The notes under the pieces are model-generated. The model made no database searches. It was given only the letters and a program-made list of their open reading frames with translations, and had not been told where the DNA came from. From Clostridia bacterium (GTDB lineage: Bacteria > Bacillota > Clostridia > Christensenellales > UBA1242), in assembly GCA_045638465.1 (NCBI GenBank), contig JAZUBK010000028.1, positions 40,335 to 104,334 on the forward strand: a stretch of 64,000 nt of DNA, written 5' to 3'. Below, piece by piece: positions 15,462 through 40,175 of the stretch. Position 1 is the first letter of the stretch, and every line of letters starts with the position of its first letter. Both the position numbers and the translations under genes were made by a program.

Positions 15462-18400
15462 ATGAAAAACGTTAAAAAATTTTTACATTCGATAATCTTA
15501 GTATTTACCTTGCTACTATGCACGGCATCTTTTAGTGCGTGTGGCGGAGTAAATGTCACCAAAATATCTATCGACGGAGGACCACAGTTTTTGGAAGTGG
15601 GTGAAGAGTACACATTTTCTGCTACTCTAACCCCTAAGAAAGCTAGTAGCAAAGATATAACTTGGTCTAGCAATAATACGGCGGTAGCATCTATCAACGA
15701 AAAAGGTAAAGTCAAAGCAAAATCTGCAGGTACAGCAATAATCACTGCGATGAGCAAGAAAAACAGTAATGTAAAAGACACCTTTGAACTTGTAGTAGCG
15801 GGAGGCGATAGCGGAATCATAATGCTAAAGTCCGAACATACCTACGATGGACAACCTAAGCCTTATGAAGCATCATATGTTCCTGAGGGCCTAACAGTAA
15901 GATATACTTACTACATAAAAGACGTTTACCCAGAAAGTGGATATGCCCCTACTGATGCTGGTAACTATCAAGTATTTGCATACGACACTGTTACTGGAAG
16001 AAAGTTTGAAAAAACTGGTAACCTTATCATAAAACAAAAACAAGTTTCTGTAAGTGTAGGAGATTACACCAAAAAGTTCAGTGAGCCAGACCCAACATTT
16101 ACAGCCACTGTATCAGGACTTGTAGAAGGCGACACCCTTAACTATACAATCAAGCGTACAGCAGGTGAAAACGTAGAGCAATACTCAATATATCCAGAAG
16201 TAGAAGCTCACAAAAACTACTACCCTATCATCTCTGAAGGTAGACTAACTATTGAACAACTACCTGTAAAACTTATTGTAGACAATAAAACTTCAACTTA
16301 TGGCGACACTCTACAAACCCCAACTTACACTTTGCAAACATTAGATAACTATTTGCTTGATGATTCTATAAAGGCACAAATTCAAGGCGCTCCTGTAATA
16401 GAAATGCCAACAGGCACAACAAGACTAAATCAAGGTAGTTACTCTATTACTGCAGACAACCTATCTTCTACAAACCTAAATATCACTTCTAGACAAAATG
16501 GTACTTATACTGTAAGCAAAAAGATAGTTACTATTGCAATAGGTCCAGAGCAATTCAAATATGCAGGTCAAAGCGACCCAGCACTTGTATATGCAATTGA
16601 CGGAACTTTGGAAGGTGACGACTTGTCTGGTTGTCTATCTAGAGTTCATGGTGAGACAGTAGGCTTCTATGAATATGTAATCAACCAAGGAATAAATACT
16701 AACTATACAATTATGACAGAAGCTGGTGCTACTGCTTATAAATTTGAAGTTAGAAGCAATGACGTTATTATTACATTTAACACCTTTGCTATTGATTACT
16801 CACAAACAAATAAAGAGGGATTTATTCCTACAGATTGCTACAACTATACAATCACAATAAATGCTATCCAAAAAGATTATGAAGTTGACGCTTTGGGCAA
16901 TATTTATCTTGATGGGGCAGATTCTGTAACACTTTCTCATGAAATCACAAAAGAAGCTCATATGACAGATGAGGAAAAAGCTTCTTATTATCAAAAATGG
17001 AAAGTTGTTCCTAGCAAACTAGCAACAAGCGGATATACCGATCCTGCAAAATACACCTTTACTTTTGTAGAGGGTTATAAATATCTAAATCTTCTAGACC
17101 TAAACATCTATGCAACAGAGACTTACAAAGTTTATGGTGATGTAGACCCTGCCCTAACTTATAACGCAGTAGGATTTTTGGAAGGTGATGACGCAGAAAG
17201 CGTTTTGAAAACCGTAGAACTAAAAAGAGAAATGGGCGAGAACGTTAATGACAACGGATATGCCATTACTCTAAAAGATGATATTGAATTATTTGACACA
17301 AAGACTTATTACAAACCTATCTTTAACCCTGGTGTGTTTGTAATAGAGAAAAGAGAACTTAGAGTAACACCTATAAGTTACACCGAAGACAACCCTATCT
17401 ATTATGGCGAAGCACCAAGGGTATTAGAGATCGATACAACAGACTTAAATATTGCTTCTCGTGATAACATCACATCAGTTTTAACCGGTGAGCTTAGCAG
17501 AGCAAATAACGAAGACGTTGGACAATATCCAATTCTTGGAACAGATTTGCAACTTTTGTCAGACAACTACTATATCACATACACTCCTGGTGTATACACT
17601 ATTATTCCTAGACCTCTACATATCACAGCTATTGATATGTCTATTCAATATGGCGAAAGCGTTTCTAGATATCAATATTCTTATAGTATCATTGATGAAT
17701 TTACCTATATTGATGAAGAAGGCGAAGAGGCTGTAGATCTTAGATTCTACACTATTGACGACCCTTCATTTAGTGGTTCTCTTGCGCTAACAAGTTACGG
17801 ACTACTACTTGCAAACCACACCTACACTATAGGTCAAGGTAATCTTACTGCTGGTGGAAACTTTGATATTACCTTTGCTCAAGGAACTTTGACTGTTGTT
17901 CCTAGAGAAGTAACACTTGCTTTTACTGCTCAATCATATGGCTTTACAGAATATGACGCTATGGAGGCAGAAGGCAACGCAGCAGTTATTGATGCACTTG
18001 TTTACAATTTCAAACCAGACCTTGCATACAATGACACTTGCAACATTACTTATTGCGGTAGAGCAATAGATAGAGATACAAATATTGTAACTTTGGCAAA
18101 AGACTCTGAAGAAAACTATGTTTTGGAATTGGAGTTCTTGGCGGCGGACGGAACTATCTTGGACGACTGCTATAACGTAACTATTAACGACAACTTTGTT
18201 GAATTGTTCTATCTAGGACAATCTTTGCTTGATGTTTCTATCAACAGCAAAGCTGGTGGACAAATACTAGAAAAAACTTATGGTGATAGCTATAACATAA
18301 TTGATGTATTTACAATTGTTACAACCAATCCAGAATACACACTAGAATTTACTTCTGCATCATTTAACATCAAAGGTATCACTGACCAAGCACACAAAAC

Positions 18401-21400
18401 AACCCCTGCGTCATACCTATTCCCTGCAGGATCATATACTGTAACTGTATTTAACGAAGACGTTGTAATCAGAAACAAGGCTGGTGAAGACGTTTCTAAG
18501 AGTTTTGCGCTAAACATCAAAAACTATGGTAGCTTAGTTGTAAATAAAGCTACTCTTACAATGGTAGAATCTCCTGTTGTTGGCAGATATGTTGAAGATC
18601 CTGCCGATCCTGGCAACCCTACTTTTGTTCAGAACATCGTTTATGGAACTGCAAGACCTACATTTGTTGGTGGTAAATACACCTTCGTTAATGGAAATGG
18701 TGCAACAACCACAATAAACGGTACTGATGAAGAATATTCTACATCATCTACAGCTACTTATGCCGTACAAAGCACAGCGCATTTGATTATGGCGACATTT
18801 ACTCCAAATAACAAAAACTTCAATCCTGTAACAGTTAACGGAATTCCTCTAGTTGTTACAAAGAAAATGATTGATACAACAACTCTTGTTTGGAGTTATG
18901 GTGCATCTGTAGAAAATTATGGTGTTGCTTCTGGTTCTATCTATACAACAAATACCGATGTCGAAGGTGTTGAAAATATTGTTTATAATGGAGCATACAC
19001 AGAAGAAAATACCTATAATATTCCAACTACACTATCAAATTATAGATTCCTAAGACAAACACTTGGCTCTCAATACAAATACTTTGGCGTAGCTTTCCAT
19101 GATGAGGACGATGGTGACACAGGATTTATGTACTATATCGAAGGTGGCACTGTTAAAAAAGTGTTCCCTGCTGATTCTACTAAATTCTATGCTGTTTTGG
19201 ATAAATCAAAAACTGATATTGATGTTAAATTCTACTATTCAGACGGCTCAAAAGAATATCTTTTGACAAACTCTAGCGAATACGGTACAGGTCAACCTGT
19301 TTACTGGAATAGCGTTTACTCTCCAAATACCAGTGGTGTTTATCTTGCAAGAGTTATTATCTCTTCTCTAAACTCTAACTATGCGGTATTTGAAGATGGA
19401 GACCCAGCAACTACTGAAGAAACTATTACTTACTACAACACATTCTTGGTAGAAAAAATCAAGGTTAAAGTTTACAACTTTACAAATGCTATCACATATA
19501 GCGACGAACTTGCTTTCTACTATGTAACAGACCCTGAAGAAATTTATGGTCTAACATCTACTTACTGGGATAGAAATGCTGCAAGTACAAACTACACAGC
19601 AAGAGCAACAGATCCTGTAGACGTTGGTTACTATGCAGTAACATTCTTAATTGACCAAGCAAACTACTACTATTATCAAGAGCACTGCGACTTTGAAATA
19701 GTACCTATTGAAATATTGGTTGTTTGGGACGAAGTATCAACATTTGACTACATCAGTTCTGACACACCACTTACTCGTAACTATAAAGTATACGAAGGCG
19801 AAGAAGATGAAGACAACCTAGCTTACGATTCTTCTGATAACACAAGCGTAGCACCAGAGTGGCTAAACATTATCTATTCTGGTCAAATGAAAAATGGCAC
19901 AGATTATTATTCTGAAGGAAAAATCAACGAGGTTGATATTCCTTGCAATGCCGGTACTTATACTATAGCTATTTCTATAGCAACAGGCAGCGAAAACTAT
20001 ACTGGTTCTTCTAGCAATACCTACGAAATTGCACCTATATTCTATAGAGGCTCTATCGGTATTACTCGTGGAACAATCACTTATGATATCGCTTACAACA
20101 ATGGAACTGAAGGCGCTGTAGCGTTCTTTGAAGAAATTGCTGAAAAGATGATTACAAATGCTCCACTTGGCTCTCAAGCATGGGAAGATTATTACCTAAG
20201 TATTTCTTACCTTGGTCATGTTATCGACCCAACAGGTGCTGACAATACTGCAGTACTTGCTCTAAACAAAGCAGGTGGCCCATACAAAATCACTCTATCT
20301 ATTAAATCAAAAGATGGTAATATCAAAGAGACTTTGAAGACAGCAAACCTTACTGTAAACAAAACAAACGTTCCTACAATGGCTAACTATCCTTCAAGCC
20401 ACACTGAAATTCCATTTACTGGTACTTATGTATTTAATGCTTTAACAACTATCGACAAATCTGAAATCTTTGAACCATCACCAGATAGTTATGATGCAGC
20501 AAATATGACCTATACTTATGAACATAATGGTGATATGACTATCTACTTTGGTATTATTTACAAATACTACCTAGTATGGACAACAGAAGAGACAACAGGT
20601 TCTCCAACTACAGCTCCTATCACTCCAAGAACAGACCGTTATTTGTATATGGTTCAAGCACAAATCGTAGTAGGCGCAAACTATAGCGAACCTAGTCAAT
20701 ATTTCTACACAGGCTACTATCTAGTAACAAAGACAAATGCTTATTTGTCTGCAGACAATATAGAGGTAACTTATACAGGTAGCAATATTGAAATTCCTGG
20801 CGTTTCTGCTAAAAACACTGCAGAGCAACCACTTGCTATCAAGTACGAAAACAATGCAGACGTTCTTGGCCTATATGTTTCTAGAGTAATCAAAAACCTA
20901 GATACAAATGCTACAGTTACATTTATTAAAAGTGCTGGTAGATATCAAGTTACCTTCACTCTAGAAGATACAGAAAACTTCTACACCGAAGAAAGTAGGT
21001 TTACGGCAACCTGTACGATAATTGTTAACAAAAAGCCAATCGATGGCCTATTATCGTATGTTGTAGCCCCTGAAACTTTTGTCTCAACGGAAATTTACTC
21101 TACCTTCTATATCGATTCGGCAAAGGCAAAAGCTCACAACGCCGACTATATTAGCGGCAGCACGTTGTTGATACAACTTTGCGTAACCGATGCAAACGAT
21201 GGCTCTGGCCAAATATATAGACTAACTAGTAAGTCAGACTCTTCTATAAGAGATCTTGCTGCTGGAACTTACTACTATTATGTTGATGTTTCTACCGCTG
21301 CAAACTCTAGACAAAATATCATCAACTATACACGTAGTGGTTATGTACAATTCGAAATAATTAGAAAAAATGTTATTGTGACAATTAATTCTCCACACGA

Positions 21401-24400
21401 AAATGGTGTTACAATAAACTACAATGCTGGAAGTCAAGGCTATGATGTAACATATCTAACAGTTAAGACAGAAGGCTCAAACAAGACTGTTACAGGTCTT
21501 GACAAAGATGACTTTATCATCGAGTACAAAAAAAGCTCTGAAGATGATACTGCTTATACAACAACTCAACCAATGGTTAATGGCAACTATGATGTAAGAA
21601 TCACTTGCTTTAACGAAAACTATGCTTCAGAACCAATCTATACTACCCTAACAATTGATGCTCCATTACTTGATATTTCTGGTAGTATTTCATACACTTA
21701 TGGCTTCGTAGGTGAAGTTGCACTTAGCCTAACTGCTACTGGTGGTGAAAGAATACACACAGTTTCATTTGATGGCGTAACAACAAAGTATAATGATGCG
21801 GCTTTGAAAAATACACTTGGAAGATGGTTTATTGTAAGAGATAACTTTGGCGTTTATGACCCAGACGGAGCTATTCCTTCTTCATTTGCATTAGATGACG
21901 GAAGAGTTATCGGCGATGATATTAACGCAGGTCTTGCTGCTTTGTCTGGCAAACTTTATACTGCAGAAGAACTAAATGCTCTTCCTGTTGGTATTCATAC
22001 AATGGTTGTTATTTATATCAGTAATGATATGAACTTTGCAACAACCTTTAAAGAAATTTCATTTACTGTAAACTCTTATGAAATAACTAGTGAAGCTATC
22101 GTAGAATCAAAAACCGCAGGTATAAACTACGACGCTACAAACAAAAAGTTTACTCATACAGAAAATTATAACGCTGTTAGCCAATATCAATCTGGCGTAT
22201 GGAGTTATACAAACCACACACTAAACGAAGCATTTACATTTGATGTAGCATTTTTAATTAAATCTCCTAGTGCAGATAATTATGATGCAGCAACAACATT
22301 GATTCTTCAACTTTCTGCAAATGTAACAGGATCTATTACTGGCGCAGAAATCAAGACCGCTTTTGCAGACCAAAATGCAACTGCAACTTCTGCAATTGAA
22401 AAGACTGGCACATTAACATTTGCCTCTTCTAACTATACTCTATCTGGAGACGATATTTCATTTATTCTAGGTGCGATATTTAATAAACAAACTACTACTG
22501 CATTTTCAGAAAAACGTTCTCAAGGAAATGAACTAACACCTGTAGAATACACTTATGGCGCTGTATTCTTGGATACTTATTGGGCAAACCTAAATGATGA
22601 GGGCGATGCAATGCTTGATGGTTACCCATCTGAGATTGTATCTAACAGCAACCATATTTATCTATACAATGTTCTTAACCTTCCTGGCGGACAAGATATT
22701 GATTCATTTACTTCAGCTTGGACATTTGATAACAAAAAATGGCACTCATTCTACACTATCAAAGCATACACTTATACAGGTAATGTAAAAGGAAGCCAAG
22801 TAACTTCAGACAAGCTATTTAATGAAGACGATGATGAAAGAAATGCTGCTGGTGCTGCCGTTTATAATTACTACAAATATGACCTAAACAAATACACTGA
22901 TGCTGGATTATATTTGCTAGAAATTACAATAAACAGTAGCGATTACTTCCTTGCAACTACATTTAATGCTCTTGTTAGAATTAAACCTACTACTTACTAC
23001 GCAAAGACCTCTTTGGGTTCTGGCGATGGTTTGATTGATGCTAATACTGTAACTGAAGAAACAATCAAGGTTTATACTAGAGAGTTCCACTCTACAGATA
23101 ATCCTTCTGAAGAGGTACATGCAGAATACACTATTTCTTACTATAGAGTAAATGGTGCAACTCAAACTCTTGATTATAAATCAAAATACACCTGGAAATC
23201 TAGCGGCGGAACTTACGCAGCTCAAGCAGGTGGAACTTACAACTCATTTACTGCACTTCTAAATTCAATCAGCGGTGCAACTCAATTTAAGATTACTGTT
23301 ACACCAAGCTCTGCTTATGTTAACAGTATGTATGTAGAAGATATCTACATATTGATTGTTAGAGGTTCTGTTGATATTGGTATCTTTAACATTTATGACG
23401 AACTAAACCTTATCGACCTTGCAGCAACTCATGAAGTACTTGGTTCTTTATACGAAATGAGCGATGGCTCAGACGAAGGTTTGACTTGGTCTTCTGACCT
23501 TGTTAGAGTTTTGGAGAAATCTGGAAACTCTATCACAGAAGAAAGCATCTCATTTATGCATCTATACGATCAAGAAAGAGGTGTTAATATCACACCTAAC
23601 GCAGACTCTAGCCTAGATATTACTATTATGCCAAATAGTAATAATCAAATTACTATTAACGCTTTACCTTTGATTATTAAAATGGCTGATGGCTCACAAC
23701 TTTCTATTATGACATCTTTTGTAATTAACCTAAAGATTGTAACAGAGATTGATACTTTCAACTTTGAATACAACACTACTGCTCAAGCACCTAATGTTAC
23801 TGCTTATTTCCAAGGTTGGAGCATTCACATACCTGTTGTGGATAATACACCTGATGTCAACAACTTAGTTCTTACTGAAATGTTACCAGCTACTCCATTT
23901 ACAGGCGTTACTCCTTCTATTAAATACATTAACCAAGTAACAGGCACTGAAAGTACTACTGCGCCTATCAACGCAGGAAACTATGCAGTTCAAACAACTT
24001 ATACTGTTACATTTAACGGCGATACAACCCCTGTAATATTTGTTTGCAAAAACAACTTTACTATAAGCAAGATTGAGGCTGTAATTACTATGGAATCTGC
24101 AGAATATTTATATGATGGTTACAACCACTCACTTACTGCAACTACTGCAATCCCAGGACTTACTGCAGCTATCACTTATAGGACAAGTTCAGCAACTTCT
24201 ATTACAAATCCTAATGCAGCAGATGTTTACTATGCGGTTGCAACAATTACAGATGCCAACTACTTCGGTACTGCAGTTGCTACACTTTCAATTAAAGCTA
24301 CTTCTACTAGAATTGAAATTACTATGCCAACAGATCTTGTATTTACTGGCAACCCTATCTATCCAACATTTAGAATCTTTAATGAAAACAATGTGGATAT

Positions 24401-27400
24401 TACTTCTGCCGTAGGCGGCAATGCAAGGGTAACTTACAACGACATAACATCAGTTCCTATAAATGCTGGTGCTTATGAATATAAAGTTTCAATTACAAAA
24501 ACTACTAACTTCCTTGCAAATGAGCTAAAAGCTAACTATGTAATTGACAAAGCTGTTCCTACAATCACAATAACAGCCCCTGCAAATACAACTTACACAG
24601 GCTCTCCTATTGTGCCAACATTTAATATCCCTGCAACATTGAGAGATGTAACAACTATCACATACAACGGTTCTACTACAGAACCAAGAAATGCTGGTAT
24701 TTATGAAGTTTATGTAAATTGTGCTCCTGGTGCAGATTCAAACTTCTTGCCAACAACTCAAAGCTATACTTATAGAATCTATCCAAGAGAATTGACTGTT
24801 ACTTATGACACAACAGGCACTTTACTTATGACTTATGCTGAATCTATGGCTATAACAAGTCTAAGACCTTCTCCAAATGATTCTAGTGCAACTTATAAAT
24901 ATCAAGGCTTTGAATACAACGCTGACGGAACTATCAGTAATACATTGATAGAAAGTAACACCTTCCCTCAAAATGCTGGTGTTTATACAATTATCGCTTC
25001 TCCTGGTAGCGCAAACTATACAGGTAGAGTTTCTACAACGCTTGTAATAGCAAGAGCAATTCCTTCTATTACCTTTAATACTAGCGGTGTAATGACCTAT
25101 AATGGTTCTCCAAAGACACCAACAGTAACAAAGAGTGTTGCAGATTTAACCTATATAACAGGATACACAGGAACAAATAATAATGGAACTGCTTATAATT
25201 CTGCAGATGCTCCAACTGATGCTGGTAGCTATGTAATCACAGTTTCATTTGCAGGAAACAAAAACTACTGCGCAGTAGAAAGTTTCCAAAGCTTTGAAAT
25301 TACAAAGCTTTCAACTATTACATTGAGTTTTGATAACCTATCTCTATCTCAAATGTACACAGGCTCAGGCCTTACTCCTACCGCAAAAGCTTATCTAAAC
25401 GCAACTGAAAAGAGCGATCTAAATAGCAGTATCGTTATGACATTTGGTGAAGATAAGACACTTCCTATAGATGCAGGAACTTACACAGTAAAAGCTATGC
25501 TTGTTCATTGCAACTATAGTGCAGAAACAATTTCTAATACATTTACTATTACAAAGAGTAACGACTATACCGTAACTTTAACAAATGGTGGTCAATTAGA
25601 AATTGGTGCAACTAGTATCGGAACTGTAGCAATTGGTAGCAGTTATATGTTCCATTATGTAGGTAAATCTTACCTTGCAAATGGAGAACTTCCTACTGTT
25701 AACAACTACGACAGCTTTGTAATTCCATCAAATGCTGGTGTTTACGTTGCAACTCTTATTTCTGACAACTATTTACCAACAGAATACTCATTTACAATCA
25801 ATAAGAAAGATTTGACTTCTGATTTGGTACTTGTAAACTATGACACTGTTGTTGGCGTTGTTCCTGATCTTACAAACACTGTTGAGTGTGACGGAGATAT
25901 TTATAAAGTAAAATATTTATTCCTTCACGAAAACGCAACTGAGTATACAGAAACAAGACCTACAATGATTGGTGCTCATAAGATCAAAATGGTAATTTGC
26001 GACGCTAACGCTCAAGGCGAGGTTGAAGCAAATTACAACATCACTTCTGTAGAAACAGGAGATGTAAAGGTTGTAACAGATAGCTTGTATTATATGTATA
26101 CAGGCAACGCAATCGTTGTTAACGCTTCACTTTATGTTGGCGGAATACTACAAACTGGTACTATTAACAAAGCATTTACTTTAAATGGAAGTAGCGTATC
26201 ACATGTTACTGAAATTGGTGTATATACAGTTTCTCTAACAACAAGTACGGGCTCTCAAACAGGATCAACTACATTTACTGTTATCCCTTCTATATCACTA
26301 TCAACCCCTGCAAACGGCGAAGTTTATAACGGCTCTGCAAAATCTGTTTCTTGGCAATATGTGTCATCAACAGACCAATCTGTTTACGGCGGAGATACTG
26401 ATTTAGTTATTGTAAGAGATGGCTATACAGTAAGCGAAATAAAAGATGCTGGAACTTATCAAGTAAGCGTTAGATACAAAGGCTATGCTGTTTTGACCAG
26501 AGACTTTGTTATCGGCAAAAAGGTTGTAACCGACCTTGGAACTTATGCTACTGATGTAATCATGGCATATGGCGAAATGAATAAGATTCCAACACACATT
26601 GGTTCTTACAAAGTAAAATATATGATTAGTCTAAACGGCACTAATGCATATCAAGAAATAACCCCAACTGTTGGTACTCACTTAATTAAATTTATTATTG
26701 TTGAAGACAACTACCAAGGCGAAATTATACGTAACCTTTCAGTTTCTAAGAGAGCTTTGATTATAGATGTTGATGACTTTGAGGTTGAGTATACTGGCAA
26801 CACAATTGTTATGCCTTCTACTCTAGCAAGTTTTGAATATGTAACTTATTCTCACAGCCCAACACCTAGCAATTATGTAAACGGCTTACCTAGAAATGTT
26901 GGAACATATTATGTTCAAGCTATGTCTTCTTCTCCAAACTATGCTGTAACTTATAAAGATCCTTCAAGACCTTATATTATAGTAACTATTACAAAGGCTA
27001 CTCCAACATATATAGTAACAAACACAACTCAAATATATGACGGAAATGTTAAAGTTCCTAACGCTACTGCAATATTTAATGGAGTTTCTTACACAACAAG
27101 TATATCTAACTCAAATATGATTGATGCAGATACTTATACTGTTTACTTTACTATTGCAACTGACCCAGACAACTTTAATAGAAGTGCTGATTTTGAGTTT
27201 ACTATCGAAAAAGCCCAAGTCGATATTACTTATAATATTCCTGAAGTTATGGTTTATGATGGAACACAAAAACCTATTACTGCATCACCATCTGTTGCAG
27301 ATGTGGGTTCTGTTCAAATTACAATCACAAAAGACGGCGCAACTAAAGTACCTACTGAGGCAGGAACTTATGTAGCAACATTTACAACAGCTGCTACAAC

Positions 27401-29138
27401 AAACTATGCTGCTTGTACAAAAGTTGTTGTATTTGAAATTCTACCTGCAAAAACTCAAGTAGAATGTACCGTTGCTAGTTATAGTTATACTGGAACTGCA
27501 AAAGCAGTAACCGTTACAACTTCTCCTACAAATTCTACTAAGACTATTACTTATACTGGCGAAGACACAACAGGTGTTGCTTACAATTCAGCTACTGCTC
27601 CTACAAATGCAGGAACATATACCGCTCATATAATTGTTGTACCAGCTGATCCTAACTACTCTAGAGAAGAATTCGACTTTACTTACACTATTGTAAAAGT
27701 AATCGATACAATAACTTACACTGGAGCAGCTGACGGATACTTCTACTATGACGGAACTGCTAAAAACCTAACTAGTGTTTCTTCTGGTTCTGGTACTCAT
27801 ACAGTAACTTACAAAAAATTGGTTAATAGCTCTCCTACTACAGTAAATGCGTCAGAAGTAAAAGACGAAGGTAGCTATAGAGCAATAATCACTACAACTG
27901 GAGATAAGAACCATTATGGTACAACTAAAGTTGTATACTTTACTATCTACAAACAAAGACTAACTGCCAATATCACAGGCAAATCTGTTGACTATACTGG
28001 CTCACCTCAAAGTATTGTTCCTGACAATACACACAGTGGACTTGTAAAAGTTTGGTATTCTGGCAAGATGTACAAGTCTGATGGTAAATGTACAGAAACT
28101 TATGCAGAAACAGACGTTGCCCCTACAAGAGCAGGTATCTATACTGCAGTACTAAAACCTACAAATGATAATTATGCAATAGACGGAACATCTGCCGCAG
28201 CACTTATCATCAAGAGAACTCAACTTGATATTTCTATTGAGATTGATGGTGTTTCTAACACTACTACTATTATTGATTATACAGGTTCAGAATATAATGT
28301 TGCTGCATACTCAATGATAGGTGGAACAAAAACCGATGTTTCAACTATAAATGCAAATGCTCTAACAATAAGAATTTCAGGAACAACTACTCCTGTTCCA
28401 TTGAAAGAGGGTGGATTGTATGAACTTATTGTTGACCTAAATGATAAAAACTTCATTGGACACAACGAAAGACTTATTACAATTAGGCCTCAATCAGCAT
28501 CTATCTTTGCTACTCAAACAGTTGCAAGTTATACCGGTCAAAAGGTATCTATTGGTTACTCTATAATAAGCAAGAGCGGTGTTGATATCACTACTGAAAT
28601 TCAAGATAAGGTACAAATAATATATACTAAAAATGGATCTGTTGTTGAACCTATCAACACAGGAACATACACAGCAAATATTATCTTGGCTAATACTTCA
28701 TATGTAGCAAATGCAACTTATGCATTTACTATAGTAGAGACATTGCCAGACCTTATTTATAGAGGCGGTGCATCACCAGCTTACTTTAACACAATCGATA
28801 GCACAGGCGTAACATCATTTAATACTGCTCAGTTCGAAGTTTCTTTGGCGGGAGTAAAATTAAATGCAGCAGAATACTCTGTTTCTTATAAAATATTAAC
28901 AAATAATATTGACGAAGAAACAGGCGAAGTTACTACCTCTTGGGAAAATACTACTGTAACTGCAGGTTCTGTACTAAGTGAATCTGGTAAGTCATATCAA
29001 ATTATAATAACTATATCTAACACTGCAAAATATCAAAGCAACTTAATTGGTTCTGATGTTGTAGATGCAGAAGGTAATGTTACTCAAACTGATGTGCTTA
29101 CTTGGACATATCTATTCTATATTGCTTCTGAAGAATAG
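15462..29138 (+). CDS. giant (4558 aa) surface lipoprotein/adhesin of tandem Ig-like modules (Big_2-like domain followed by many MBG/YDG-type repeats)
   Basis: Single uninterrupted ORF with an AGAGG RBS. Signal peptide with a lipobox-like FSAC (Cys27). A Big_2-like segment (ITWSSNNTAVASINEKGKVKAKSAGTAIITA). Recurring motifs YGD.DP.LTY..G.LEGDD and Y(T/D)G..P...AP(T/I)(N/D)AG.Y. Confidence 0.9.
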   Translation: MKNVKKFLHSIILVFTLLLCTASFSACGGVNVTKISIDGGPQFLEVGEEYTFSATLTPKKASSKDITWSSNNTAVASINEKGKVKAKSAGTAIITAMSKKNSNVKDTFELVVAGGDSGIIMLKSEHTYDGQPKPYEASYVPEGLTVRYTYYIKDVYPESGYAPTDAGNYQVFAYDTVTGRKFEKTGNLIIKQKQVSVSVGDYTKKFSEPDPTFTATVSGLVEGDTLNYTIKRTAGENVEQYSIYPEVEAHKNYYPIISEGRLTIEQLPVKLIVDNKTSTYGDTLQTPTYTLQTLDNYLLDDSIKAQIQGAPVIEMPTGTTRLNQGSYSITADNLSSTNLNITSRQNGTYTVSKKIVTIAIGPEQFKYAGQSDPALVYAIDGTLEGDDLSGCLSRVHGETVGFYEYVINQGINTNYTIMTEAGATAYKFEVRSNDVIITFNTFAIDYSQTNKEGFIPTDCYNYTITINAIQKDYEVDALGNIYLDGADSVTLSHEITKEAHMTDEEKASYYQKWKVVPSKLATSGYTDPAKYTFTFVEGYKYLNLLDLNIYATETYKVYGDVDPALTYNAVGFLEGDDAESVLKTVELKREMGENVNDNGYAITLKDDIELFDTKTYYKPIFNPGVFVIEKRELRVTPISYTEDNPIYYGEAPRVLEIDTTDLNIASRDNITSVLTGELSRANNEDVGQYPILGTDLQLLSDNYYITYTPGVYTIIPRPLHITAIDMSIQYGESVSRYQYSYSIIDEFTYIDEEGEEAVDLRFYTIDDPSFSGSLALTSYGLLLANHTYTIGQGNLTAGGNFDITFAQGTLTVVPREVTLAFTAQSYGFTEYDAMEAEGNAAVIDALVYNFKPDLAYNDTCNITYCGRAIDRDTNIVTLAKDSEENYVLELEFLAADGTILDDCYNVTINDNFVELFYLGQSLLDVSINSKAGGQILEKTYGDSYNIIDVFTIVTTNPEYTLEFTSASFNIKGITDQAHKTTPASYLFPAGSYTVTVFNEDVVIRNKAGEDVSKSFALNIKNYGSLVVNKATLTMVESPVVGRYVEDPADPGNPTFVQNIVYGTARPTFVGGKYTFVNGNGATTTINGTDEEYSTSSTATYAVQSTAHLIMATFTPNNKNFNPVTVNGIPLVVTKKMIDTTTLVWSYGASVENYGVASGSIYTTNTDVEGVENIVYNGAYTEENTYNIPTTLSNYRFLRQTLGSQYKYFGVAFHDEDDGDTGFMYYIEGGTVKKVFPADSTKFYAVLDKSKTDIDVKFYYSDGSKEYLLTNSSEYGTGQPVYWNSVYSPNTSGVYLARVIISSLNSNYAVFEDGDPATTEETITYYNTFLVEKIKVKVYNFTNAITYSDELAFYYVTDPEEIYGLTSTYWDRNAASTNYTARATDPVDVGYYAVTFLIDQANYYYYQEHCDFEIVPIEILVVWDEVSTFDYISSDTPLTRNYKVYEGEEDEDNLAYDSSDNTSVAPEWLNIIYSGQMKNGTDYYSEGKINEVDIPCNAGTYTIAISIATGSENYTGSSSNTYEIAPIFYRGSIGITRGTITYDIAYNNGTEGAVAFFEEIAEKMITNAPLGSQAWEDYYLSISYLGHVIDPTGADNTAVLALNKAGGPYKITLSIKSKDGNIKETLKTANLTVNKTNVPTMANYPSSHTEIPFTGTYVFNALTTIDKSEIFEPSPDSYDAANMTYTYEHNGDMTIYFGIIYKYYLVWTTEETTGSPTTAPITPRTDRYLYMVQAQIVVGANYSEPSQYFYTGYYLVTKTNAYLSADNIEVTYTGSNIEIPGVSAKNTAEQPLAIKYENNADVLGLYVSRVIKNLDTNATVTFIKSAGRYQVTFTLEDTENFYTEESRFTATCTIIVNKKPIDGLLSYVVAPETFVSTEIYSTFYIDSAKAKAHNADYISGSTLLIQLCVTDANDGSGQIYRLTSKSDSSIRDLAAGTYYYYVDVSTAANSRQNIINYTRSGYVQFEIIRKNVIVTINSPHENGVTINYNAGSQGYDVTYLTVKTEGSNKTVTGLDKDDFIIEYKKSSEDDTAYTTTQPMVNGNYDVRITCFNENYASEPIYTTLTIDAPLLDISGSISYTYGFVGEVALSLTATGGERIHTVSFDGVTTKYNDAALKNTLGRWFIVRDNFGVYDPDGAIPSSFALDDGRVIGDDINAGLAALSGKLYTAEELNALPVGIHTMVVIYISNDMNFATTFKEISFTVNSYEITSEAIVESKTAGINYDATNKKFTHTENYNAVSQYQSGVWSYTNHTLNEAFTFDVAFLIKSPSADNYDAATTLILQLSANVTGSITGAEIKTAFADQNATATSAIEKTGTLTFASSNYTLSGDDISFILGAIFNKQTTTAFSEKRSQGNELTPVEYTYGAVFLDTYWANLNDEGDAMLDGYPSEIVSNSNHIYLYNVLNLPGGQDIDSFTSAWTFDNKKWHSFYTIKAYTYTGNVKGSQVTSDKLFNEDDDERNAAGAAVYNYYKYDLNKYTDAGLYLLEITINSSDYFLATTFNALVRIKPTTYYAKTSLGSGDGLIDANTVTEETIKVYTREFHSTDNPSEEVHAEYTISYYRVNGATQTLDYKSKYTWKSSGGTYAAQAGGTYNSFTALLNSISGATQFKITVTPSSAYVNSMYVEDIYILIVRGSVDIGIFNIYDELNLIDLAATHEVLGSLYEMSDGSDEGLTWSSDLVRVLEKSGNSITEESISFMHLYDQERGVNITPNADSSLDITIMPNSNNQITINALPLIIKMADGSQLSIMTSFVINLKIVTEIDTFNFEYNTTAQAPNVTAYFQGWSIHIPVVDNTPDVNNLVLTEMLPATPFTGVTPSIKYINQVTGTESTTAPINAGNYAVQTTYTVTFNGDTTPVIFVCKNNFTISKIEAVITMESAEYLYDGYNHSLTATTAIPGLTAAITYRTSSATSITNPNAADVYYAVATITDANYFGTAVATLSIKATSTRIEITMPTDLVFTGNPIYPTFRIFNENNVDITSAVGGNARVTYNDITSVPINAGAYEYKVSITKTTNFLANELKANYVIDKAVPTITITAPANTTYTGSPIVPTFNIPATLRDVTTITYNGSTTEPRNAGIYEVYVNCAPGADSNFLPTTQSYTYRIYPRELTVTYDTTGTLLMTYAESMAITSLRPSPNDSSATYKYQGFEYNADGTISNTLIESNTFPQNAGVYTIIASPGSANYTGRVSTTLVIARAIPSITFNTSGVMTYNGSPKTPTVTKSVADLTYITGYTGTNNNGTAYNSADAPTDAGSYVITVSFAGNKNYCAVESFQSFEITKLSTITLSFDNLSLSQMYTGSGLTPTAKAYLNATEKSDLNSSIVMTFGEDKTLPIDAGTYTVKAMLVHCNYSAETISNTFTITKSNDYTVTLTNGGQLEIGATSIGTVAIGSSYMFHYVGKSYLANGELPTVNNYDSFVIPSNAGVYVATLISDNYLPTEYSFTINKKDLTSDLVLVNYDTVVGVVPDLTNTVECDGDIYKVKYLFLHENATEYTETRPTMIGAHKIKMVICDANAQGEVEANYNITSVETGDVKVVTDSLYYMYTGNAIVVNASLYVGGILQTGTINKAFTLNGSSVSHVTEIGVYTVSLTTSTGSQTGSTTFTVIPSISLSTPANGEVYNGSAKSVSWQYVSSTDQSVYGGDTDLVIVRDGYTVSEIKDAGTYQVSVRYKGYAVLTRDFVIGKKVVTDLGTYATDVIMAYGEMNKIPTHIGSYKVKYMISLNGTNAYQEITPTVGTHLIKFIIVEDNYQGEIIRNLSVSKRALIIDVDDFEVEYTGNTIVMPSTLASFEYVTYSHSPTPSNYVNGLPRNVGTYYVQAMSSSPNYAVTYKDPSRPYIIVTITKATPTYIVTNTTQIYDGNVKVPNATAIFNGVSYTTSISNSNMIDADTYTVYFTIATDPDNFNRSADFEFTIEKAQVDITYNIPEVMVYDGTQKPITASPSVADVGSVQITITKDGATKVPTEAGTYVATFTTAATTNYAACTKVVVFEILPAKTQVECTVASYSYTGTAKAVTVTTSPTNSTKTITYTGEDTTGVAYNSATAPTNAGTYTAHIIVVPADPNYSREEFDFTYTIVKVIDTITYTGAADGYFYYDGTAKNLTSVSSGSGTHTVTYKKLVNSSPTTVNASEVKDEGSYRAIITTTGDKNHYGTTKVVYFTIYKQRLTANITGKSVDYTGSPQSIVPDNTHSGLVKVWYSGKMYKSDGKCTETYAETDVAPTRAGIYTAVLKPTNDNYAIDGTSAAALIIKRTQLDISIEIDGVSNTTTIIDYTGSEYNVAAYSMIGGTKTDVSTINANALTIRISGTTTPVPLKEGGLYELIVDLNDKNFIGHNERLITIRPQSASIFATQTVASYTGQKVSIGYSIISKSGVDITTEIQDKVQIIYTKNGSVVEPINTGTYTANIILANTSYVANATYAFTIVETLPDLIYRGGASPAYFNTIDSTGVTSFNTAQFEVSLAGVKLNAAEYSVSYKILTNNIDEETGEVTTSWENTTVTAGSVLSESGKSYQIIITISNTAKYQSNLIGSDVVDAEGNVTQTDVLTWTYLFYIASEE

Positions 29139-36832: not shown

Positions 36833-37597
36833 ATGGATAAAAATATACAAACAAAACTGGATAAATTTTTGGAGAGTTTTGAACACAAAAAAGACGTGGT
36901 TGCTGTTTTGGTCTGCGGAAGTTATATAACTGGCCACCCAAACAGCCATAGCGACCTTGATGTTCATTTGATATTAGATGAGCATTGCGATTATAGAGAA
37001 AGAGGCAATCGTATAGTTGATGGGCTTTTGATAGAATATTTTTCTAATACAAAAAGACAACTATTAAAATATTTTGAAGACGATTTTAAAACAATAAGAC
37101 CTATGAGCCAAACGCAATTTGCCACAGGCGAAATTATTTTTGATAAAACTGGTGAAGCAAGAGAGCTAAAAGATATTGCAATCAAACAACTAGATGAAGG
37201 TTTCGAAAAGGTAGATAATACACCTTTCCCACTAGCGCTATATGGAGTATGGGATAGCCTTGATGATTTGCAAGGGCTTATCGAAGATAATAGAGAGGAC
37301 TACGACTTTATTTATTACAACAAACTAAACAATCTACTTGGTTTTATCTTTTGGGATAGAAAGATTCCTTACAATACAAAAACTGTTTTGGGTCATATCT
37401 CAAACCCAATAACTAGACAAAAATATCTATTAAAAGAAATAAAAGACAAATCGCTTTGTGACCTTGTAACAAAAACAATCACAGCCCCAACTAGGGAAGA
37501 AAAACTTGAGGCTTATACCTCTCTTGCAAACGGGCTTTTGAAAAAACATAACTTCGATATTTCTACATTTGCCTTCAAAAGCAAAGAAGATATCTAA
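36833..37597 (+). CDS. nucleotidyltransferase-domain protein (KNTase/ANT-like two-domain architecture)
   Basis: Pol-beta NTase motif CGSYITGHPNSHSDLDVHLIL followed by a helical C-terminal domain. Confidence 0.7.
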   Translation: MDKNIQTKLDKFLESFEHKKDVVAVLVCGSYITGHPNSHSDLDVHLILDEHCDYRERGNRIVDGLLIEYFSNTKRQLLKYFEDDFKTIRPMSQTQFATGEIIFDKTGEARELKDIAIKQLDEGFEKVDNTPFPLALYGVWDSLDDLQGLIEDNREDYDFIYYNKLNNLLGFIFWDRKIPYNTKTVLGHISNPITRQKYLLKEIKDKSLCDLVTKTITAPTREEKLEAYTSLANGLLKKHNFDISTFAFKSKEDI

Positions 37598-37700
37598 ACA
37601 TCTCTATCAAAAGATGGAAAGTTCTATTCCATCTTTTTTTTATAAAATATTAACACAACATATTTATTTGTGATATAATGTGCGTGTAGGAGATTATTAT

Positions 37701-38399
37701 ATGTTAAAAGTTTTAGATGAAGTATTATTAAGTGACGAAGTCTGCAAAGACTTTTATGAAAAATATTCTGATCCAGAGTTTAGATTTTGGCTTATGTCTG
37801 TTTTGCCAGAAGTAGATGAGTGCCGCAAACAAGAACAAGATAATCCTTGGCATATATATGATTGCCTTGAGCATATCTTACACTCTGTAGAAGAAATAAA
37901 TAAACAAACAAAAAATATGCCCGAGCCAAATAGAAGAAAACTTGCTTACACTATGTTTTTGCATGACATAGGAAAACCCGAAAAACATTTGCGTAGATAT
38001 TCTAAACTTTATCGCAGAGAGGTAGATAGCTTTTATAATCACAATATGGCAAGTAAAGATGTTGCTGATAGGGTTTTGGAAAAAGACTTTAGTTTTGATC
38101 ATGCAGATGCAGAGCAAATAAAAATGCTGGTTGAAAAACACGATATCTTTATGTTTGTTACATTGCAAAATGACCACAACCCATATCACAAAGTTTTGAC
38201 ACCTGGATATATCGCAGAGCAAGAAAGCGACCTTGCAAAAGTAGGCAACGGCCAAACATTAATGAGTGAACTTATTATGATAGGTAGAGCTGACAATCTT
38301 GCGCAAAATCCGAAGATGACAAAAGACTCTTTGCATATGTTAGACGTGATGGAAAAGATGCAAACAAAAATGCACTCTCAAACTCCACCTGCACAATAA
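37701..38399 (+). CDS. HD-domain protein (resembles the HD region of CCA-adding/poly(A) polymerase-type enzymes)
   Basis: NPWHIYDCLEHILHSV and FLHDIGKPE. Start at ATG 37701 (AGGAGA 7 nt upstream). Confidence 0.7.
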   Translation: MLKVLDEVLLSDEVCKDFYEKYSDPEFRFWLMSVLPEVDECRKQEQDNPWHIYDCLEHILHSVEEINKQTKNMPEPNRRKLAYTMFLHDIGKPEKHLRRYSKLYRREVDSFYNHNMASKDVADRVLEKDFSFDHADAEQIKMLVEKHDIFMFVTLQNDHNPYHKVLTPGYIAEQESDLAKVGNGQTLMSELIMIGRADNLAQNPKMTKDSLHMLDVMEKMQTKMHSQTPPAQ

Positions 38400-38436
38400 T
38401 AAATTGCAATAAACAATCACAAAACAATCCATAATC

Positions 38437-38465
38437 AAAAGGCTGTTTTTATAGCCTTTTTTTAT
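38437..38465 (+). terminator. intrinsic terminator after the HD gene
   Basis: AAAGGCT/AGCCTTT hairpin plus T-run. Confidence 0.7.
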
Positions 38466-38618
38466 TTGTCTTGAATTAACAATACCTATTGCTACAAGCA
38501 AAAAAATCAAAATATATCACTATTAAAATTTGACGCCTCTGCCCCTAACCGCAGTAAAAATACCCCCTGCCTTTTTGCACCTAAAAAACATCTTTCAACC
38601 CCGCCACCCCACGTTTTT

Positions 38619-38813
38619 CGACCAATTGGTCGTATAATCAATATTTACCCTAAAACGGGCTTTAGTTTTTTTTAAAAAAATTCTAACAACTAGCAACTTT
38701 AATTTTCTTATTTTTTGCACCTTTACATTAAAAATATACCCGTCGACCATTTGTTCGGGTTTTGTTAAAAAACGCCTATATTATGCGGGTTGTAGCGTCC
38801 GACCACTTGGGCG
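38619..38813. repeat. three copies of a GC-rich 14-bp palindrome in an ORF-free region
   Basis: CGACCAATTGGTCG (38619-32, perfect palindrome, abutting TATAAT 38633-38). CGACCATTTGTTCG (38744-57, 12/14). CGACCACTTGGGCG (38800-13, 12/14). Confidence 0.6.
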
Positions 38814-39161
38814 GTAATTGAATTTTAGATTTTTTTTGAAGGGCTAGTTTTTGCAACCAAAATAAAGAAATTTATACAAGTTTTTTGAAGAGAAAAATTG
38901 CTCAATTTTTGCTTGGTTTTTAGTTTGGTTTTTGGTTGTTTTTAGAAGGTTATTTGGCTAGTTTTTATGTCATTATTTTAGAGAGTTTTTAGGGTAAAAA
39001 TCGCATAGCAAATAAACTAAAAACAATATCCTCTCATTCAAATAATACTTAAAGTATATTCGTCGGTATTTTAAAAAATATATTGCTCGGGGCTTTTTTA
39101 TATTCTATATGTTTTGCAAATTTTTTATTGCATGTTACAATCAAAGTGTAAGGAGTATGTT

Positions 39162-40175
39162 ATGAAAAAAGCACTTAAAATTATCGCTATAGTTTTTGGC
39201 TGTATCGTACTTGCGTCGGGTATATTTTTATCAGTGTGGTTCTTTTGGCCATGGAACTCAGCCTTCTTTAAAAACGCAAAAAAGGAATTTGAAATACCAG
39301 GGTTAGACTCAGCTTTTGTGCCTCAAGCTTTTACAAAAATAGACGGCATAAGCAAATACATAATTGGCGGCTATATGTCTGACGGCACACCATCTAGATA
39401 TTATGTTGTAGATAAGACCAGTGGCAAAGCCGTAAAATATTTTACTTTGTCTATAGACGCAAAAGACTATACAGGACATGCTTGTGGCATAGCATCATCT
39501 CAAGATAATATTTGGATCTGTTCAAAAAATAAAGATGGAGAGGGTCAAGTTTATAGATTCAATTTGCTTGATGTTTTGGACGTAGAAAACAAAGGTGTTG
39601 TAAATGTTATTGATTACTTCCCTTCTTTTAATGGAGCAGATAATATAACAGTAAGCAACGGATTTTTGTGGGTAGGCGAATTTTACCGTAAGGGTAATTA
39701 TGAAACAGAACGATCACACAGAATTAAAACCAGAAGCGGAGAACAAAACCCGGCTGTTGCAATCGGGTATGAAATTTCTGACTTTGCAAATTACGGACTT
39801 GTAGATACTATACCTGATCTTGCACTATCAACGATAGGGCTTGTTCAAGGTATGACTTTTGCAGATGATGGCAAAATTATTTTGTCTACTTCATACGGAC
39901 TTGGCGACTCTAATATTTATAGTTACAAAAATGTTTTGAGCGAATCTCAACATTCTACTATAGATATAGAAGGCGTAGAAATACCGCTGTGGTTTTTGGA
40001 CAATGAATCATTAATCAAAAAGACCAATGCTCCCGCTATGACAGAAGAGATAATAATTGACGATGACAAATTGTTTATCTTATCAGAAGCCGCTTGTAAA
40101 AAATATAAGTTGTTTACTAGAAAAAAAGTAAAGCATGTTTATAGCCTTCCTTTAGATTATGTACTAATTAAATAA
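39162..40175 (+). CDS. hypothetical N-terminally anchored extracytoplasmic protein (337 aa)
   Basis: Start at ATG 39162 (AAGGAG upstream). Signal-anchor KIIAIVFGCIVLASGIFLSVWFFW. Strand-rich body, possibly propeller-like. No family named. Confidence 0.6.
   Translation: MKKALKIIAIVFGCIVLASGIFLSVWFFWPWNSAFFKNAKKEFEIPGLDSAFVPQAFTKIDGISKYIIGGYMSDGTPSRYYVVDKTSGKAVKYFTLSIDAKDYTGHACGIASSQDNIWICSKNKDGEGQVYRFNLLDVLDVENKGVVNVIDYFPSFNGADNITVSNGFLWVGEFYRKGNYETERSHRIKTRSGEQNPAVAIGYEISDFANYGLVDTIPDLALSTIGLVQGMTFADDGKIILSTSYGLGDSNIYSYKNVLSESQHSTIDIEGVEIPLWFLDNESLIKKTNAPAMTEEIIIDDDKLFILSEAACKKYKLFTRKKVKHVYSLPLDYVLIK

Follow-up and report, generated by a model that had tools for sequence, protein, structure and literature searches.

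A conserved cluster of palindromes in a non-coding gap of a Clostridia chromosome

What is a long stretch of DNA without genes doing in the chromosome of a gut bacterium? The question is raised by a gap in a 64,000-nucleotide stretch of a Clostridia genome (contig JAZUBK010000028.1; hereafter the window, numbered from its first letter), in which a reading of the letters alone (the original prediction) had noticed a region free of open reading frames (ORFs) and, within it, three copies of a 14-bp palindrome. The gap indeed holds no ORF of at least 60 amino acids, and a long ORF is still absent when any single stop codon is taken as sense, as in alternative genetic codes. It lies between an upstream gene for an HD-domain protein of 232-239 amino acids and a downstream gene for a membrane-anchored protein of 337 amino acids. 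Because the downstream gene starts at ATG 39162, a position given by its ribosome-binding site AAGGAG and the N-termini of its homologues, the true gap spans 38400-39161, or 762 bp; as had been claimed, it is the largest non-coding stretch of the window, the runners-up measuring 630 and 575 bp. We found the palindrome cluster in this gap to be real, non-random, non-coding and under selection.

Three palindromes and the constraint on them

All three palindromes are present where they had been described, with start-to-start spacings of 125 and 56 bp, and each of two -10-like hexamers lies beside or between them:

38619-38632: palindrome A, CGACCAATTGGTCG, a perfect dyad of two 5-nt arms around a 4-nt centre
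38633-38638, plus strand: -10-like hexamer TATAAT abutting palindrome A, NATAAT in relatives, with no recognisable -35
38744-38757: palindrome B, CGACCATTTGTTCG, one arm position of which is a fixed C/T mismatch
38777-38782, plus strand: -10-like hexamer TATATT between B and C, TATACT in four relatives, with no -35 found
38800-38813: palindrome C, CGACCACTTGGGCG, with a fixed A/G mismatch

The sites cluster far beyond chance. With up to two mismatches allowed, the motif CGACCAnnTGGTCG occurs three times in the 64 kb, always in the gap, against 0.39 occurrences expected, and the 10-mer common to the sites, CGACCANTTG, has 4 matches against 0.17 expected, a count reached by none of 100 shuffles. 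When the gap, or the G+C-richer core within it, was shuffled 5,000 times with dinucleotides preserved, no shuffle contained more than one site.

We assessed constraint in an alignment of seven distinct haplotypes of one species group, namely the window and six close relatives, with the four-fold degenerate sites of the adjacent 337-aa gene (58% invariant) as the neutral yardstick. The P values given here for blocks are indicative only, because block boundaries were set after the alignment had been seen and the haplotypes are recombinant mosaics:

38461-38535: conserved block 1, with an extended -10 on the minus strand, TGaTATATT (38512-38520 in plus coordinates), and the hexamer TTGACR on the plus strand at 38530-38535; 63 of 77 columns invariant (82%), P = 7.5e-6
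38583-38650: conserved block 2, comprising an A-tract AAAAAACATCT, a pyrimidine-rich stretch, palindrome A and its -10-like hexamer; 50 of 69 columns invariant (72%), P = 0.009
38725-38816: conserved block 3, running from AAAAATATA through palindrome B, GGGTTTT and AAAAAACGCCTATAYTATGCGGGTTGTAGCG to palindrome C; 71 of 92 columns invariant (77%), P = 9e-5
39100-39161: promoter region of the downstream gene; 56 of 62 columns invariant (90%), P = 2.1e-8
38536-38582, 38651-38724 and 38817-39099: intervening segments; 54% invariant, not significant against the four-fold rate
Palindrome arms: 29 of 30 positions invariant, P = 2e-6
Palindrome 4-nt centres: 8 of 12 positions invariant

The contrast between arms and centres is independent of where block boundaries are drawn. 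In palindrome A, the arms are invariant across the seven haplotypes and the centre varies between A and G; palindrome B reads CGACTACTTGTTCG in five of the six other haplotypes. The spacings between palindromes, 124-125 bp and 56 bp, are held in all haplotypes, and the -10-like hexamers vary at weakly constrained hexamer positions only. Over approximately 70% of its length the gap evolves neutrally, and the spacer at 38817-39099 sits at the neutral level with 158 of 290 columns invariant. Judged by this alignment, three blocks appear to be under purifying selection, two of them built around palindromes.

Candidate operators and the RNA alternative

Which activity could such selection be preserving? 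Of the explanations put forward in the original prediction, a cluster of operator sites fits best, in that the arms are invariant, the centres are free, the core is of the type bound by the regulator RutR and -10-like hexamers adjoin the sites, although a regulator gene was not found nearby. We therefore favour, tentatively, a reading of the three palindromes as a cluster of operators that adjoins weak -10-like hexamers and serves a dimeric helix-turn-helix regulator. The palindromes would be double-stranded DNA operators, each made of CGACC arms that flank an unconstrained 4-bp centre; the same sites can be written as a GACCA-nn-TGGTC dyad. Their binder would be a dimeric helix-turn-helix factor whose gene lies at another place in the genome. 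It would probably be a member of the TetR family similar to RutR in specificity, and the sites would act at weak promoters (TATAAT abutting A, TATAYT between B and C) by occlusion or activation of local, unannotated transcription; longer-range control of the downstream 337-aa gene would be possible too. Were the TATATT hexamer used, the centre of B would fall at about -38 to -40 and that of C at about +17. We infer the binding of a protein, the family of the regulator and the target that it regulates.

RutR was the only lead that a literature search for the motif provided. This TetR-family regulator of Escherichia coli has the operator consensus TTGACCAnnTGGTCAA, in which positions 4 (A) and 13 (T) are critical, and it also binds far from start codons, with a site at -284.5 of carA (PMC2475637). 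The 12-position core GACCAnnTGGTC (GACCA-nn-TGGTC) is identical in palindrome A, and B and C are each one position off it. Measured against the 14 specified positions of the E. coli consensus, A as a 16-mer (TCGACCAATTGGTCGT) matches at 11 and B at 10, both with positions 4 and 13 correct, and C (38799-38814 as a 16-mer, CCGACCACTTGGGCGG) matches at 9. In both systems, the dyad has a free 2-bp centre and can lie hundreds of base pairs from a start codon. They differ in the outer positions, which here are C/G rather than T/A (CGACCA versus TTGACCA), and in the host, here a low-G+C Clostridia lineage with no rut or car genes and no TetR gene nearby. By analogy, then, the palindromes would work like a TetR/RutR-type operator cluster, of which they are putative members.

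Several observations weigh against this assignment. Site C departs from RutR at critical position 13, where it has a G. The gene of a TetR-family regulator usually lies adjacent or divergent to its operator and is autoregulated; here, no regulator gene is adjacent and none of the window ORFs scanned matched TetR_N. Two XRE-type helix-turn-helix genes lie in the window, 8 and 27 kb from the gap. No regulon can be shown, because neither the window nor the flanks of any relative's locus contain a further site. The sites are 350-540 bp from the nearest annotated start codon, and a promoter scan found no -35 for the hexamers beside the palindromes. Conservation reaches 30-40 bp past each palindrome, so the functional unit extends beyond them. 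What little substitution there is within or next to the stems of B and C consists entirely of C-G to U-G changes on the plus strand, a pattern compatible with an RNA hairpin too, and the evidence base is seven haplotypes from a single species group.

That pattern of substitution introduces a somewhat unlikely alternative, in which the palindromes act as short stem-loops, formed either by plus-strand RNA or by the top DNA strand when single-stranded. One or two small transcripts would begin at the NATAAT and TATAYT hexamers, and the hairpins would be protein-binding, stabilising or weak termination elements. C is more stable on the plus strand (-10.0 versus -5.5 kcal/mol) and, in an alternative register of the plus-strand RNA, forms a 7-bp stem of 38796-38802 with 38807-38813 that is 98% paired; loops vary and stems do not; UUUUGUU follows B; and all stem-side substitutions, such as C-G to U-G at position 5 of B, keep plus-strand wobble pairing. 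The wobble-preserving changes are weak support for RNA, because transitions opposite G always look so. Against the hairpins, no pair is altered on both sides, the mismatch in B is permanent, its outer stem is broken in most haplotypes, no convincing promoter was found, and A and C have no terminator. Such an RNA would also span the interval from A to B, which is neutral and in which the window has a private allele.

Folding and database searches likewise gave no sign of the structured non-coding RNA that had been proposed as a candidate: there was no Rfam match, no covarying pair and no remarkable fold. The Rfam comparison suggested with that proposal returned nothing in the gap at the gathering threshold, and with Rfam 15 at E values up to 10 the best matches (E = 0.5-10) all scored far under it. 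A search of the gap for transfer RNA and transfer-messenger RNA found none. In the syntenic alignment of the seven close haplotypes, which has low power, no base pair changed on both sides. Hairpins A, B and C fold at -7, -7 and -10 kcal/mol, with z scores of about -2 to -0.8 for single hairpins and about 0 for longer stretches; block 3 folds no better than its shuffles (z = -0.07 and +0.55), and RNAalifold on five haplotypes gave z scores of -1 to -2.4 for the palindrome regions. The C/T mismatch of B and the A/G mismatch of C have stayed invariant and unrepaired. The hairpin formed around B by ACCCG and CGGGT, another feature of the original prediction, is present (38738-42 with 38756-60, followed by TTTTGTT), but its 5' arm is not conserved: two pairs of this outer stem are broken, in five and in three of the seven haplotypes, with no compensation, and TTCGGGTTTT is invariant while the flanking ACCCG arm changes. 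The unrepaired mismatches, the broken outer stem of B and the invariance of TTCGGGTTTT suggest that the sequence is recognised and not the structure. Long-range pairing of the C-rich run with GCGGGTTG was considered and dropped because the C-rich partner varies.

Small transcripts at the locus are plausible nonetheless, because block 1 independently resembles a small minus-strand RNA gene, and this counts in favour of the RNA hairpins as well. The block may hold a small-RNA gene, promoter included, on the minus strand, with a transcript of about 70 nt that reads into an intrinsic terminator at 38437-38460. Its extended -10, TGaTATATT, is retained in all seven haplotypes, and the minus-strand fold from 38506 to 38430 has a minimum free energy of -17.7 kcal/mol (z = -2.7). 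Within this candidate RNA the loop ACCT varies between haplotypes and the stem is retained. A broader version of the idea, which we regard as decidedly unlikely, would make the gap a newly gained non-coding locus, specific to this species group of gut Clostridia, that encodes undescribed small RNAs, with the transcript of about 70 nt from block 1 on the minus strand and hairpin transcripts on the plus strand, the hairpins being bound by an RNA- or DNA-binding protein, and the whole constituting a regulatory family with no Rfam counterpart. Diversifying or balancing selection would then account for the two deep allele classes of the spacers described below.

Other known sites offer looser parallels to the operators that we propose. 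The LexA (SOS/Cheo) box of Gram-positive bacteria, CGAAC-N4-GTTCG, shares the 5-4-5 architecture, its half-site is one base away (CGAAC versus CGACC), and the right half of B is exactly GTTCG. It differs in that A has two mismatches to it and C three, the half-site conserved here is CGACC, no SOS genes flank the sites and the canonical box occurs nowhere else in the window. Terminators and small-RNA hairpins are likewise short G+C-rich stem-loops in AT-rich DNA, and a T-run follows B. Intrinsic terminators were rejected as the identity of the palindromes: the terminator scan reports only 38437-38460, a separate and real terminator, A and C have no adjacent T-run, and the outer stem of B is broken and its stem not conserved. 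The sites match dif, the Spo0A 0A box and ECF-sigma (extracytoplasmic function) and sigma-54 promoters at best partially.

Two AT-rich metagenome contigs carry a similar arrangement. At L036:5213-5296 and L099:3240-3323, two perfect 24-bp palindromes, AAAACCGACCAnnTGGTCGGTTTT, lie 58 bp apart between a divergent DUF5916/CBM9 gene and an etfB-etfA-ETF-QO operon, of which they are likely operators or attenuators. These two orthologous loci were the only AT-rich ones among the metagenome matches listed, the others being mostly chance matches in GC-rich DNA and CRISPR (clustered regularly interspaced short palindromic repeat) arrays. They resemble our sites in the CCGACCA/TGGTCGG dyad (C matches 15 of 16 positions), in the 58-bp spacing (56 bp between B and C) and in their intergenic position at 33% G+C; they differ in being perfect, flanked by A and T runs, placed between divergent genes and from an unrelated organism. 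Because the search pattern demanded the motif and the spacing, they are not independent evidence, but they do provide examples of such dyads within promoter regions. The CRISPR arrays (L043, L051, L061, L073, L088 and L097; 57-60% G+C) have the palindrome GCGACCAnTTGGTCGC in their repeats and are unrelated to the window.

A slot that turns over

Where did the non-coding segment come from? The nearest relatives in genome collections are Clostridia or Christensenella-like metagenome-assembled genomes, at 66% and 48% identity. In distant relatives with about 65% protein identity (L001 and L004 to L006), the slot is filled by an intact gene for a 368-aa protein of the endonuclease/exonuclease/phosphatase (EEP) family (L001:4707-5813). 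Close relatives with about 92% protein identity, from several gut metagenomes, all retain the gap at 746-764 bp, and three of them (L019, L026 and L025) have an additional 213-aa ORF between the HD gene and the terminator (L019:1613-2254), which shows no similarity to the EEP gene or to the gap. The slot thus occurs in three states, namely an EEP-family gene, the 213-aa ORF with the non-coding segment, and the non-coding segment alone, and the same terminator hairpin follows whichever gene comes last. Because relatives carry the EEP-family gene or the 213-aa ORF there, the slot turns over; across the loci compared, the non-coding segment is specific to this species group.

An intact ORF in relatives had been named beforehand as the mark of a plain pseudogene. 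L001 does hold such an ORF, but no similarity ties it to the gap, and a plain pseudogene is for that reason not demonstrated. In a tblastn search, the best match of the EEP gene to the gap had E = 0.81 over 11 residues, and a slightly better one (E = 0.76) fell in the 5' coding sequence of the downstream gene; by blastn, the EEP locus and the window locus matched in their flanks and not in the gap interior; and no stop-to-stop segment in the six frames of the gap matched Pfam. No conserved small ORF exists in the gap, and the sole common micro-ORF, a 12-aa frame MRVVASDHLGGN, was rejected since its changes are nonsynonymous only.

We consider it unlikely that the gap is a functionless relic of a lost EEP-family gene or of an acquired element, with the palindromes as undecayed old terminators or ends. 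The intact gene in exactly this slot in relatives of about 65% identity, the turnover exemplified by the 213-aa ORF, the neutral evolution of some 70% of the gap and its local G+C content of 40-47%, which like its strand skew is unusual for a 33% G+C genome, are all in keeping with a relic, and the divergence is large enough that a gene in decay might no longer be recognisable by similarity. The missing similarity and domains speak against it, as do blocks 1-3 and the palindrome arms, significantly more conserved than the four-fold sites of the adjacent gene, and the constant spacings. The gap has no terminal inverted repeats. Dispersed copies, as of a miniature inverted-repeat transposable element (MITE), were found neither in the window nor in any fetched locus; BLAST searches of the gap against phages and plasmids gave no match, and four pattern scans of viral contigs gave nothing or chance matches in GC-rich DNA only. 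A decayed acquired element, as originally suggested, is thus right in one respect, since the segment is lineage-specific and occupies the slot of the EEP gene or 213-aa ORF, but the palindrome blocks are not simply decaying, because they are under purifying selection. A MITE, an insertion-sequence remnant, a repetitive extragenic palindrome and a large imperfect palindrome were each set aside, as the score of the gap against its own reverse complement is below the shuffle mean; a degenerate CRISPR array was set aside for its common core of merely 14-16 nt, irregular 125/56-bp spacing and lack of cas-like neighbours.

In the close relatives, the unconstrained parts at 38650-38705 and 38817-39099 fall into two deeply diverged allele classes, the identity between which is about 70% by eye in the alignment, less than the flanking genes show at synonymous sites. 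The two classes are combined in mosaic fashion in the haplotypes, and at 38650-38705 the window has a third allele of its own; in that segment, six of the seven haplotypes have a CTTGC-GAAAG-GCAAG hairpin with a T-run, which the window lacks. A 17-nt inverted repeat, 38729-38745 with 39214-39230 (codons 18-23 of the downstream gene), is complementary at 16 of 17 positions and shows one compensated change in L019 (C-G to U-A); we take it as coincidence because most of the pairing is lost in the other allele class.

Such sharply different flanking alleles, together with three dyads within about 200 bp that have a 2-bp or 4-bp centre, are what crossover or accessory sites of a recombinase might leave, whether as a res-like triplet of a serine invertase or resolvase or as an invertible promoter. 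We judge this very improbable. The divergent segments align in forward orientation only, the reverse-complement score equals the shuffle score, no inverted repeat of any length in the gap is significant and no recombinase gene lies in the neighbourhood. Subsites of Tn3/gamma-delta res differ in spacer length; the three palindromes, unlike these, have spacers of one length. An inverton was rejected likewise, the haplotypes showing forward homology and no inversion. Recombinase sites and other, unspecified explanations share the remaining probability.

Setting and meaning of the locus

The rest of the gap contains the following elements:

38437-38460: intrinsic terminator hairpin from the terminator scan, AAAAGGCTGT-TTTT-ATAGCCTTTT, with A and T runs on either side
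38817-39099: G+T-rich spacer with T-tracts, unconstrained, with a 12-bp tandem repeat at 38906-38943
39113-39141, plus strand: promoter of the 337-aa gene, TTGCAA, a 16-nt spacer and TG-extended TACAAT, followed by AAGGAG and ATG 39162

The terminator ends the upstream HD-domain gene or, in L019-type relatives, the extra 213-aa ORF instead; with its flanking runs, it could act bidirectionally. It is invariant in 22 of 25 columns and 100% paired in the seven haplotypes, with one G-U to A-U change. The promoter of the 337-aa gene, which matches at 11 of 12 positions plus the TG in all seven haplotypes, is also retained in the 66% relative L001; no full sigma-70 promoter or terminator framing the palindromes emerged from the promoter scan. 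Two further features of the original prediction exist and are not conserved. The repeats of TTTTTGCACCT are real at 38572-38582 and 38712-38722, with a variant at 38848-38858, and in relatives the copies change independently (for example, to CTTCTTACCCC, TTTTTGAGTCT and TTTTTTACTGT); the C-run CCCCGCCACCCC is real as well, at 38599-38610 (one base from the coordinates first given), but exact C-runs are not conserved. A function is improbable for these repeats, for the C-runs and for the ACCCG arm (5') of the hairpin around B.

The window is ordinary chromosome of a bacterium of 33% G+C, with genes that include MetRS, Tex, Dtd, FolD, LDH, MscL, NUDIX and GNAT. The 337-aa protein downstream of the gap matches no Pfam family. 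At 15462-29138 on the plus strand, a single ORF of 4558 amino acids has a Big_2 domain at its N-terminus as well as several MBG domains; it presumably encodes a giant surface protein or adhesin. Strand composition flips sharply inside the gap (38360-39000): the plus strand is C-rich and G-poor up to about 38750 (GC skew -0.2 to -0.6) and G+T-rich from there to about 39000, where GC skew reaches +0.73 and AT skew falls as low as -0.66. Cumulative GC skew declines beyond about 5 kb, is lowest at about 34-38 kb and climbs again until about 47 kb, and the genes at 35.5-48.3 kb are all on the plus strand. This switch resembles that of a replication origin, yet the window has no DnaA-box cluster or dnaA gene; oriC was rejected because, despite the local minimum of cumulative skew, 36841-39406 contains no TTATCCACA-like DnaA box with at most one mismatch.

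What does the cluster mean for this organism? The kind of feature is familiar and the lineage is unstudied; nothing here would surprise a specialist or open a long-standing question. If the palindromes are operators, they would mark a regulator-target pair in an uncultured lineage of gut Clostridia, probably Christensenellales-like, for which, to our knowledge, no regulation has been described. The motif CGACCAnnTGGTCG is a concrete query for complete genomes. The locus itself would be a gene slot replaced by non-coding DNA that later came under selection, a small example of how regulatory DNA originates.

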